Shown: positions 29,818 to 32,617 of the stretch, one piece after another
How positions within the stretch are numbered: position 1 is the stretch's first letter
Layout: each line of letters opens with the position of its first letter
NCBI RefSeq assembly: GCF_044324785.1
Contig: NZ_CP172127.1
Length of the DNA stretch: 64,000 bases
From: Escherichia coli
GTDB lineage: Bacteria > Pseudomonadota > Gammaproteobacteria > Enterobacterales > Enterobacteriaceae
Direction: 5' to 3' (one strand)
The notes under the pieces: generated by a model
Seen by the model: the letters and a program-made list of their open reading frames with translations, nothing else
What the model was told of the DNA's origin: nothing
The model's database searches: none
Program-made: the position numbers and the translations under genes

Positions 29818-31179
29818 TTACTTCTCCAGTTGGCGTAATATCTTATTAACTTTATCAAAAGTTTCCTGATATTCCGCTTCTTCCTGGCTATCGGCGACAA
29901 TTCCACCGCCCGCAGAGCAGTAAATTTGTCCGTTAATGGCAGTCAGCGTGCGGATAGTAATGCTGGTGTCCATGTTGCCGCAAAAGCTCAAATAGCCAAT
30001 GCTGCCGCACCAGGCATTGCGTCGGTGCGGTTCCAGTTCGTCGATAATTTCCATAGCCCGTACTTTCGGAGCCCCAGTTATTGAGCCACCAGGAAAAGCT
30101 GCGCGCAGCAGATCGCTGGCGTGTAACTGTTCTGGTAGCCGCGCCGTTATGGTGCTGACCAGATGATGCACGGCAGGGAAGGGTTCGACCACGAACAGCT
30201 CTGGTACTTTTACCGAACCAGCTACGGCAACGCGACCGATATCATTACGCATTAAATCAACAATCATCAGATTTTCAGCGCGATCTTTCGCTGAGTTCGC
30301 CAGTTTTTCTGCTTGTTTGCTATCTTCCTGAGGATCGGGCAGGCGTGGTAGCGTGCCTTTAATCGGGCGGGTCTGGATTTCACTATTATCACAAAGGATA
30401 AACCGCTCTGGCGAAAGGCTTAAAATCGCACCCTGTTCAAGACGTAAAAAAGCGCTAAACGGCGCGCGGTTGGCCTGATTAAGCTGAAGGAATGCCTGCC
30501 ATTCATCGCCAGAATAGGTCGTATGAAAACGCTGGGCGAGATTCACCTGATAGCAATCACCACTGTGCAGATATTCCTGTACCTGGCGAAATTTTTCGCC
30601 GTACTGCTCGCGGGTCATATTGGATTGCCAGTCGGAAGTGAGCGTGAAATCTTCCTGCGGCGAGAATTGCTGGCTTTCCAGCCAGGCCCGACGAGCATTG
30701 ACATCATTATGACTCAGCAAAGAAACTGTTTGACGCTGGTGGTCAACAACCAGCGCCCAGTCGTAGATACCCACTACCATATCAGGCAGAACGATATCTT
30801 GCTGCGCAATTTCTGGCAGTGACTCAAAACGGCGGCCCAGATCGTAGCCAAACAACCCCAGCGCGCCGCCCTGAAATGGCAAATCTTCGTTATGCGCTGG
30901 GCGAATGTCTGCGCGATCCAGCACCTGCTGGAGCACCTGTAGCGGGTCATCAGTGGTCGTTGTGCGTTTTTCGCTTTCACTAACAACGGTTTCTTTACCG
31001 AAAGTGGTTAAAGTGCAAATCGGCTCGGCGACCACAATATCAAAGCGGCTATACGGATGATCGGCATAGCCGGAGTGTAAAAGCATCGCCCACGGCAGGT
31101 GGCTTAAGCGGGAGAAATAAAATTCAGCGGCGTCCTGACGCCAGGGTAAAGTAATCACAGCGGGAGATAACGTCTTCAT
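29818..31179 (-). CDS. pabB: Aminodeoxychorismate synthase component 1
   Basis: 453-aa chorismate-binding enzyme ORF; recognised as PabB. Confidence 0.9.
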   Translation of the reverse strand: MKTLSPAVITLPWRQDAAEFYFSRLSHLPWAMLLHSGYADHPYSRFDIVVAEPICTLTTFGKETVVSESEKRTTTTDDPLQVLQQVLDRADIRPAHNEDLPFQGGALGLFGYDLGRRFESLPEIAQQDIVLPDMVVGIYDWALVVDHQRQTVSLLSHNDVNARRAWLESQQFSPQEDFTLTSDWQSNMTREQYGEKFRQVQEYLHSGDCYQVNLAQRFHTTYSGDEWQAFLQLNQANRAPFSAFLRLEQGAILSLSPERFILCDNSEIQTRPIKGTLPRLPDPQEDSKQAEKLANSAKDRAENLMIVDLMRNDIGRVAVAGSVKVPELFVVEPFPAVHHLVSTITARLPEQLHASDLLRAAFPGGSITGAPKVRAMEIIDELEPHRRNAWCGSIGYLSFCGNMDTSITIRTLTAINGQIYCSAGGGIVADSQEEAEYQETFDKVNKILRQLEK

Positions 31180-31252
31180 CAGTCCTGACTCTACTGGCTA
31201 TGTGCCGGGTAGCATGAAATAATTAGCGCCAACAATTTAGCAGGAGTTAACA

Positions 31253-31432
31253 ATGTTTGCAGGTTTACCTTCACTCACCCATGAACAGCAGCAAAAAGCC
31301 GTCGAGCGGATCCAGGAACTGATGGCACAAGGGATGAGCAGCGGCCAGGCAATCGCGCTGGTGGCAGAAGAGCTGCGTGCCAACCATTCCGGCGAGCGAA
31401 TCGTGGCGCGTTTTGAGGATGAAGACGAGTAA
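31253..31432 (+). CDS. yoaH: UPF0181 small protein YoaH (59 aa)
   Basis: Hand translation [59 protein letters not shown] with CAGGAG Shine-Dalgarno; track shows only the antisense ORF. Confidence 0.8.
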
Positions 31433-31486
31433 CACACTTATCCGTATCGTTTTCGTTATAGAAGCCGATGGTTATTTGATTGTGAG

Positions 31487-31527
31487 AAAAAGGACGCTTT
31501 TCATATGTGATTAAAAGCGTCCTGACC
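31487..31527. terminator. Hairpin terminator between convergent yoaH and yoaC
   Basis: aggacgctttt-catatgtgatt-aaaagcgtcct 11-bp stem; on the minus strand it is followed by a T-run, so it is best supported as the yoaC terminator. Confidence 0.65.
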
Positions 31528-31551
31528 CATTTATGCTGATGTAAATTTAAC

Positions 31552-31851
31552 TTAGACCAGTGCTTTTAGTTCTTCCTGCATATATGTTGAAAAGTATTCA
31601 GGATTTTTAATCACAGAGCGTTCACCTGTCTCCATTTTTTTTGCCCATCCAACCATTTTTTCCGTGAACCCAGGGTTCCAGCCTTCCTGGTCAGCTCGCG
31701 CCGTAATATCAGCGGCACTCGCGGGTACTCCCAGTTCTTTTAAATATTTAAAGATTCCCTTCGCCGTGCTTTCATTCATCGAACTTGGTGTTGGCGCTGA
31801 TACATCCATGGCACCAATGAAATCCAGGGCTTTATCTATTACAGCAGGCAT
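31552..31851 (-). CDS. yoaC: DUF1889 protein YoaC
   Basis: Track ORF 31552..31911 trimmed to MPAVIDKALDFIGAMDVSAPTPSS... (99 aa). Confidence 0.8.
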   Translation of the reverse strand: MPAVIDKALDFIGAMDVSAPTPSSMNESTAKGIFKYLKELGVPASAADITARADQEGWNPGFTEKMVGWAKKMETGERSVIKNPEYFSTYMQEELKALV

Positions 31852-32272
31852 ATTCTTATCCTTAAAATTAACCATGTTATCGATAAGGCTATATATGACC
31901 TTAATTTGCATCTAATATCAAAGGGATTATAACGATATGGCACGAGTTAACCTGTTGACATTCAGGTGTTTTAAAGGTAGCAGCTCATGGTGTGTTATCC
32001 AGTAAGAGGGAGAAAATTAACGGTCAGTCCGCACGCTATAACCAAATTGTTCAGCTAAGAAAGAAAACCAGAGATGCTAATCGAAGGGTGAACACAACGG
32101 CATTGTTATGTTTATTTATATAGTTAGTTTTATAGCTAAAATTGAAATTATAAAAATAAATAATGAATTAGCAGGAGCATCAACAGTAATATCTTAATCT
32201 CTGGTCGATTTATGTAAAACCGACCAGTATTATCGATAAATTATCGTCTGACTTATTTTGCTTCGATAAAGC

Positions 32273-32617
32273 TTACACCGCAGCCACAATCTTAATTTCA
32301 ACTTTATACTTCGGGTTCATCAAACCCGCTTGTACCGTGCAGCGCACCGGCGCATGACCCGCGACAACCCAGGCATCCCACGCTTTATTCATCGCCGCGA
32401 AGTCGTTTTTATCGGCCAGGAAAATGGTGGCATCCAGAATGCTCGATTTATTGCTGCCCTGTTTTTCCAGCACGGCGTCAATCTGCGCCAGCGTGTTGGC
32501 GGTTTGCTCAAAGGCATCGGCGTCGAGGTTTTCCGGTACACCAGTGTAGTAGAGCGTGTTGTTGTGGATTACTACATCAGACCAGCGGGCTTCAGCATCG
32601 ATACGAACGATAGTCAT
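32273..32617 (-). CDS. yoaB: RidA/YjgF-family protein YoaB
   Basis: Track ORF 32273..32665 trimmed to MTIVRIDAEARWSDVVIHNNTLYYTGVPENLDADAFEQT... (114 aa). Confidence 0.8.
   Translation of the reverse strand: MTIVRIDAEARWSDVVIHNNTLYYTGVPENLDADAFEQTANTLAQIDAVLEKQGSNKSSILDATIFLADKNDFAAMNKAWDAWVVAGHAPVRCTVQAGLMNPKYKVEIKIVAAV

Follow-up and report, generated by a model that had tools for sequence, protein, structure and literature searches.

Antisense shadow ORFs lying opposite real genes are a known artefact of ORF-based gene calling, and antisense overlapping ORFs with a ribosome-profiling signal have also been reported in E. coli.

In Vibrio cholerae, the vxrABCDE genes are laid out as VCA0565-0569, and VxrE is co-transcribed with VxrAB, a cell-envelope stress two-component system (PMC4441509). 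Deletion of vxrE results in a minor colonisation defect (competitive index 0.70) and leaves type VI secretion and the induction of VadR unaffected (PMC4441509, PMC10268840, PMC7695739). Transposon insertions in vxrE are depleted approximately 10-fold at 50% MIC tobramycin (PMC6606805). With regard to yoaH, Salmonella mutants are less fit on muskmelon and roughly neutral in LB (PMC12767474), and the gene is among those upregulated in an E. coli mutant transcriptome for which a link with oxidative stress was suggested, an observation that concerns transcription only (PMC12356324). A literature search for 'b1811' returned no relevant match.

Here, we describe the yoaH locus in a 64,000-nucleotide stretch of E. 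coli DNA from contig NZ_CP172127.1 (hereafter, the window). The initial annotation had noted that the gene track listed only a minus-strand ORF of 66 aa, and had placed opposite to it a plus-strand ORF of 59 aa that it recognised as YoaH. Both ORFs are present as claimed (Table 1). We consider it nearly certain that the plus-strand ORF is the real yoaH and that the minus-strand ORF is a passive by-product of this gene; the remaining part of the explanation, in which YoaH acts as a modulator of a partner protein, is held with low confidence. The gene yoaH is already known and annotated, and nothing at the locus is novel.

Table 1. Features at the yoaH locus, given as positions in the window.
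Feature	Coordinates	Strand	Basis
yoaH CDS, 59 codons plus TAA	31253..31432	+	ORF list, Pfam/NCBIfam, RefSeq, comparison
Antisense shadow ORF, 66 codons, GTG start	31237..31437	-	No family, weak coding score, frame not kept
Shine-Dalgarno CAGGAG	31241..31246	+	Read from sequence; ends 6 nt before ATG
Putative extended -10 element TGAAATAAT (TGn + AATAAT)	31215..31223	+	Conservation and resemblance to extended -10 consensus
Hairpin, 11-bp stem and 11-nt loop, between convergent yoaH and yoaC	31491..31523		RNA fold
pabB, divergent neighbour	29818..31179	-	ORF list and RefSeq; 73-bp gap to yoaH

Identity of the plus-strand ORF and status of its antisense frame

The plus-strand ORF starts with ATG and encodes a protein of the YoaH/UPF0181 family. 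The product exceeds the thresholds of both family models, matching Pfam PF03701 (UPF0181) with an E-value of 2.8e-29 and 100.9 bits (gathering score 23.5) over model positions 1-49 of 50, and the NCBIfam equivalog NF003476 'YoaH family protein' with 114.2 bits (cut-off 72) over positions 1-60 of 60. By these scores, the match is far beyond chance. The protein is 100% identical to YoaH of K-12 MG1655 (b1811/NP_416325.1; K-12 coordinates 1894552-1894731), and the gene has the same neighbours, length, start codon, and ribosome-binding site, so that it is orthologous to b1811 and does not differ from it in substance. A 201-nt segment at the locus differs from K-12 MG1655 at 2 sites, both of which are synonymous third positions. 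In strain WP4-S18-ESBL-07, the RefSeq CDS (L001 3354..3533) corresponds exactly to the window ORF, strand included, and its neighbours are again a divergent pabB and a convergent yoaC.

Among 5426 complete E. coli genomes, all but two (5424) contain the surrounding kilobase, and yoaH was annotated in all 12 of the records tabulated for it. The 201-nt segment was likewise found in 5424 of 5426 genomes, with at least 99% nucleotide identity in 5119 of the 5424, and yoaH was the sole annotated feature under it in 40 of 40 records from a sample spread across the ranking. The annotation was therefore the same in all 52 E. coli records tabulated. Taken together, the family models, the identity to b1811, the RefSeq coordinates and strand, and these records bear out the recognition of the ORF as YoaH.

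The initial annotation had also proposed that codon-substitution patterns in related genomes could decide between the two frames, and these patterns clearly favour the plus frame. A scan with one genome per species yielded 80 loci from Escherichia, Citrobacter, Salmonella, Klebsiella, Enterobacter, Kosakonia, Cronobacter relatives, Buttiauxella, and others. In every one of them, the ATG is kept, CAGGAG precedes it at an unchanged distance, and no stop interrupts the plus frame. Over 55 ungapped codons in 81 distinct sequences, 25, 17, and 53 columns are variable at codon positions 1, 2, and 3 of yoaH, respectively. At least one stop is present in 0 of the 81 distinct sequences in the plus frame versus 73 of 81 in the frame of the minus ORF, and the pooled pN/pS is 0.11 in the former and 0.21 in the latter, where the low value arises because the wobble positions are common to both frames. 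YoaH of E. albertii is identical despite 18 third-position differences. These patterns indicate that yoaH is under strong purifying selection across Enterobacteriaceae.

It could be argued that what is conserved in the plus ORF is its nucleotide sequence and not a protein, with the sequence acting either as an RNA element or in the regulation of pabB, as it sits in the region upstream of pabB and its 5' flank is highly conserved. However, variation at 53 of 55 third positions is a signature of selection at the protein level, and the protein family is detectable down to approximately 40% identity in other orders, where it occurs in different genomic contexts. Moreover, a search of Rfam at E <=1 over 30800-32400 returned just a sub-threshold Streptococcus sRNA, which we judged to be a chance match. 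The codon-position pattern effectively refutes conservation as nucleotide sequence, to which we attach a negligible probability. Somewhat less remote, though still extremely improbable, is the possibility that both strands code, with the minus ORF being a young, E. coli-specific overlapping antisense gene that is translated at a low level beside yoaH. The minus ORF is open in the window, in WP4-S18-ESBL-07, and in K-12 MG1655, the high identity of the segment among E. coli genomes suggests that it is open in most of them, and the antisense overlapping ORFs mentioned above provide a precedent. Yet the ORF lacks both translation signals and a coding-like composition: no Shine-Dalgarno sequence is evident in the bases upstream of its GTG, its codon-usage log-odds amounts to 1.9 bits versus 23.3 bits for yoaH, and neither Pfam nor NCBIfam assigns it to a family (nor do they for a second minus ORF of 54 codons). 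The product contains 16 Ser, 6 Cys, and 4 Trp residues, so that its earlier description as Ser/Cys-rich holds, and such a composition is as expected from an E/A/Q-rich gene read backwards. It is annotated in none of the RefSeq records that were inspected.

The frame of the minus ORF is also not kept, either within or outside the species. Three E. coli strains were examined as the most divergent records of a 40-row sample spread down the ranking. In AF57, a synonymous GCA>GCT change at Ala25 leaves YoaH as it is but interrupts the minus ORF midway with a stop; in EC42405, the antisense GTG start is lost; and in O145:H28 RM13516 (L095 317-493), an antisense stop is present. In RM13516, YoaH itself is 58 aa long, as a G>T change turns its last Glu codon into a stop. 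Outside E. coli, stops break the frame in E. albertii and E. whittamii as well as in three further Escherichia lineages, and in every other Escherichia species sampled the ORF is interrupted or start-less. Overall, the antisense frame is free of stops over the whole CDS in just 8 of 82 sequences and carries stops in the other 74, the commonest break occurring after Ile20, where ATT before CAG generates TGA on the opposite strand. When YoaH was synonymously recoded 20,000 times with the codon usage of 26 long window ORFs as a neutral simulation, the antisense frame was open in 11.4% of trials (0.114), which is indistinguishable from the observed 8/82. The frame is thus open no more often than neutral expectation, and the comparison indicates that nothing maintains the minus ORF.

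The state of this frame follows from the sense gene. By coordinate arithmetic, the third codon positions of the minus ORF fall on those of yoaH, and of the antisense frames this is the one most prone to remain open opposite a genuine gene. In such a shared-wobble arrangement, an antisense stop arises only if a His, Gln, or Tyr codon is preceded by a sense codon with T at its third position (or T/C in the case of Tyr). YoaH contains no Tyr, and in this strain no T-ending codon precedes any of its eight His/Gln codons, which is why the minus frame happens to be open. The scarcity of stops in the minus frame is thereby inherited from yoaH, as is its pN/pS, and the initial reading of the minus ORF as a mirror-frame artefact is upheld. 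A mechanical ORF list includes both ORFs. The minus ORF is longer than yoaH (66 versus 59 aa), and this greater length would explain why a longest-ORF track picked it.

Expression signals and neighbouring genes

The initial annotation had pointed to a strong CAGGAG ribosome-binding site, and this element is indeed present with a 6-nt spacer to the ATG. It occurs at the same spacing in 82 of 82 sequences, in which the consensus TAGCAGGAGT is at least 90% conserved. As supported by this conservation, translation of yoaH would start from the ATG behind the strong and invariant CAGGAG. Further upstream, in an ungapped stack of the 80 bases preceding the ATG in the 82 sequences, the motif TGaAATAAT is at least 90% conserved (60-90% at the lower-case a), while its flanks vary. 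We infer that yoaH is probably transcribed from this conserved extended -10 promoter approximately 30 nt upstream, which would put the transcription start near 31230. A scan for two-hexamer consensus promoters found none.

Downstream of yoaH, RNA folding of 31433-31545 gave -27.1 kcal/mol with a z of -2.74, and the resulting hairpin (Table 1) is probably the terminator of yoaC, because its U-run lies on the minus strand. A consensus terminator scan missed this hairpin owing to its 11-nt loop.

The longest yoaC ORF spans 31552..31911 on the minus strand (119 codons), and both RefSeq and K-12 annotate a form of 99 codons (31552..31851). The shorter start is favoured by Pfam, whose DUF1889 match covers the long form only from residue 21 onwards. 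yoaC is present in just 6 of 81 loci, all of which belong to Escherichia, and in 66 loci elsewhere, yoaB and yoaA come immediately after yoaH. From this distribution, yoaC appears to have been inserted between yoaH and yoaB in a particular lineage. The roughly 420 bases between yoaC and yoaB (31852..32272) are free of annotated features in the RefSeq records that were inspected, and Rfam gave no match there at E <=1.

Predicted structure and candidate function of YoaH

YoaH displays the features of the UPF0181 family, which are a small single domain (about 50-65 aa) and a conserved core. The core of the family reads L-[TS]-H-E-Q-Q-Q-x-A-V-E-x-I-Q-x-L-M-x-x-G-M-S-S-G-x-A-I-x-x-V-A-x-E-[LI]-R. 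Among 42 diverse members, A33 is invariant and L8, Q13, Q14, A16, E18, I20, L23, G27, S29, I34, V37, A38, and R42 are at least 90% conserved. With 11 acidic and 5 basic residues, the protein has a net charge of approximately -6. An AlphaFold2 model built from a 42-sequence alignment contains two helices (residues 10-25 and 30-46) that are joined at the conserved G-M-S-S-G turn, with a mean pLDDT of 77, 10-residue blocks reaching 93-97 over residues 11-40, and values below 50 over residues 49-59. The prediction for YoaH is thus an acidic hairpin of two helices that ends in a disordered, acidic tail. In Buttiauxella, YoaH (L069 and L076, from 2501) is 88-89 residues long and carries an additional, very acidic C-terminal extension of approximately 30 residues.

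A sequence search of the PDB found only designed helical proteins and tautomerases at E >=0.003, with no stretch significant alone, and thus no solved relative. The resemblance to tautomerases, which also appears in NCBIfam (E 0.028), was rejected, as it is far below threshold and the YoaH model contains no beta-strand. Foldseek against the PDB gave a best E of 1.1, and is uninformative for a two-helix hairpin. When two copies of YoaH were modelled via a 25-residue Gly/Ser linker, AlphaFold2 returned a pLDDT of 49 and a pTM of 0.33 without a confident dimer, and a homodimeric four-helix bundle is unsupported by this model. A possible LTXXQ resemblance of YoaH to CpxP/Spy was set aside; YoaH has no signal peptide. 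A protein of 347 residues (P0191) with six tandem 'LTPEQRQQV...ELREQGKTPQEIRAAIAEML' units matches the YoaH profile, and this protein also weakly matches dozens of unrelated Pfam models, rendering its kinship to YoaH uncertain.

The UPF0181 family is small, comprising 128 clusters at 50% identity among 1.8 billion representatives, and its members are found in three genomic settings. In Enterobacterales, the YoaH-family gene is divergent from pabB in 81 of 81 loci, as well as in a more distant relative of 64% identity. In Pasteurellaceae-type loci, the UPF0181 gene directly follows genes for a DUF446 (YqcC-like) protein and a TruC-like pseudouridine synthase; in this trio (L082 2915-4165; L098 5938-7174; L099 2310-3563), the genes lie on the same strand with short gaps, and the flanks differ in all three cases. 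In Vibrio, the gene is the fifth after those for a DUF3404 histidine kinase, an OmpR-type regulator, a DUF2861 protein, and a TraF_2 protein. As the context differs between orders, no single partner is implied. Assignment of a function by association with pabB was likewise rejected, since the linkage is confined to Enterobacterales.

The Vibrio clusters (L090 3750-8165; L097 2760-7168; L100 2719-7162) adjoin pntAB, and the UPF0181 gene is the last of their five genes. Over 49 residues, YoaH shares 49% identity with a protein of its family that is named from V. cholerae, and this protein carries PF03701 among its precomputed domains. By this identity and the shared five-gene layout, VxrE (VCA0569) is a YoaH-family protein. 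In addition, two proteins from separate 50%-identity clusters (P0163 and P0183) consist of a DUF2861 domain fused to a C-terminal UPF0181 domain. The genes for these fusions (L085 1012-2118; L092 3054-4151) come directly after those for the kinase and the regulator, and a TraF_2 gene is absent in both cases. It is puzzling that the apparent N-terminal signal peptide of these fusions would give their YoaH-like domain a periplasmic location.

It is possible that YoaH functions as a very small DNA-binding regulator of the helix-turn-helix type, whose target could be, for instance, the promoter of pabB, the divergent gene at a distance of 73 bp. The pabB arrangement is conserved throughout the Enterobacterales loci, Pfam yields sub-threshold similarities to RsmI_C HTH (E 0.039), HTH_63 (0.056), and DUF433 (0.16), and the loss of fitness of Salmonella mutants on muskmelon (PMC12767474) could reflect altered expression of pabB. 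However, all of the HTH scores fall far short of their gathering thresholds, and the model contains just two helices. The segment that would form the recognition helix is disordered and is not conserved outside Enterobacteriaceae. YoaH thus shows neither a family match, nor a third recognition helix, nor a basic surface, and its acidic charge, missing third helix, and sub-threshold scores together argue against DNA binding. The linkage to pabB is absent from the Pasteurellaceae-type and Vibrio loci, and the loss of fitness in Salmonella may be explained simply by polarity on the pabB promoter. We therefore regard a role of YoaH as a DNA-binding regulator as very unlikely. Alternatively, YoaH may be an 'orphaned' enterobacterial counterpart of VxrE, with UPF0181 proteins being small acidic helical hairpins that tune a partner linked to stress signalling or translation. 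Hints in this direction are provided by the Vibrio envelope-stress operon, the tobramycin Tn-seq result for vxrE, the linkage to TruC in Pasteurellaceae, and the fitness defect of Salmonella on melon. E. coli does not have a Vxr system. We consider this proposal doubtful, albeit clearly more plausible than DNA binding; if it is true, YoaH of E. coli would be expected to show a phenotype under some conditions and to have a binding partner that can be discovered. With low confidence, we favour YoaH as a small, acidic, helical-hairpin modulator of a partner protein; it would reside in the cytoplasm and exert its effect by binding that protein and not DNA.

Comparison with known systems

The minus ORF resembles typical shadow ORFs in that it shares the third positions of the sense gene, is slightly longer than yoaH, is of low complexity, and belongs to no family. 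We found no difference from such ORFs, and the minus ORF represents a textbook case. The locus can accordingly serve as a quality check, as a longest-ORF track would mislabel it and comparative codon patterns settle such conflicts over small genes.

PM0480 of Pasteurella multocida (UPF0181) and its relatives belong to the same family as YoaH and have the same two-helix core, but they occur in the setting described above, directly downstream of the DUF446 (YqcC-like) and TruC-like genes, and not next to pabB, and their C-terminal tail is unrelated to that of YoaH. VxrE is similar to YoaH in size (53-55 aa), in the absence of a signal peptide, and in the core L-T-H-x-x-Q-Q ... G-[MI]-S-[ST] ... 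A-I, whereas the acidic tail of enterobacterial YoaH is not shared by VxrE. VxrE is also co-transcribed with a histidine kinase, a response regulator, and DUF2861 and TraF_2 proteins (PMC4441509), none of which are present in the window, where the neighbours of yoaH are pabB and yoaC; YoaH is therefore a homologue of VxrE only and not a member of a vxrABCDE cluster. Nevertheless, the position of VxrE in a well-studied envelope-stress operon provides an experimental handle on the UPF0181 family.
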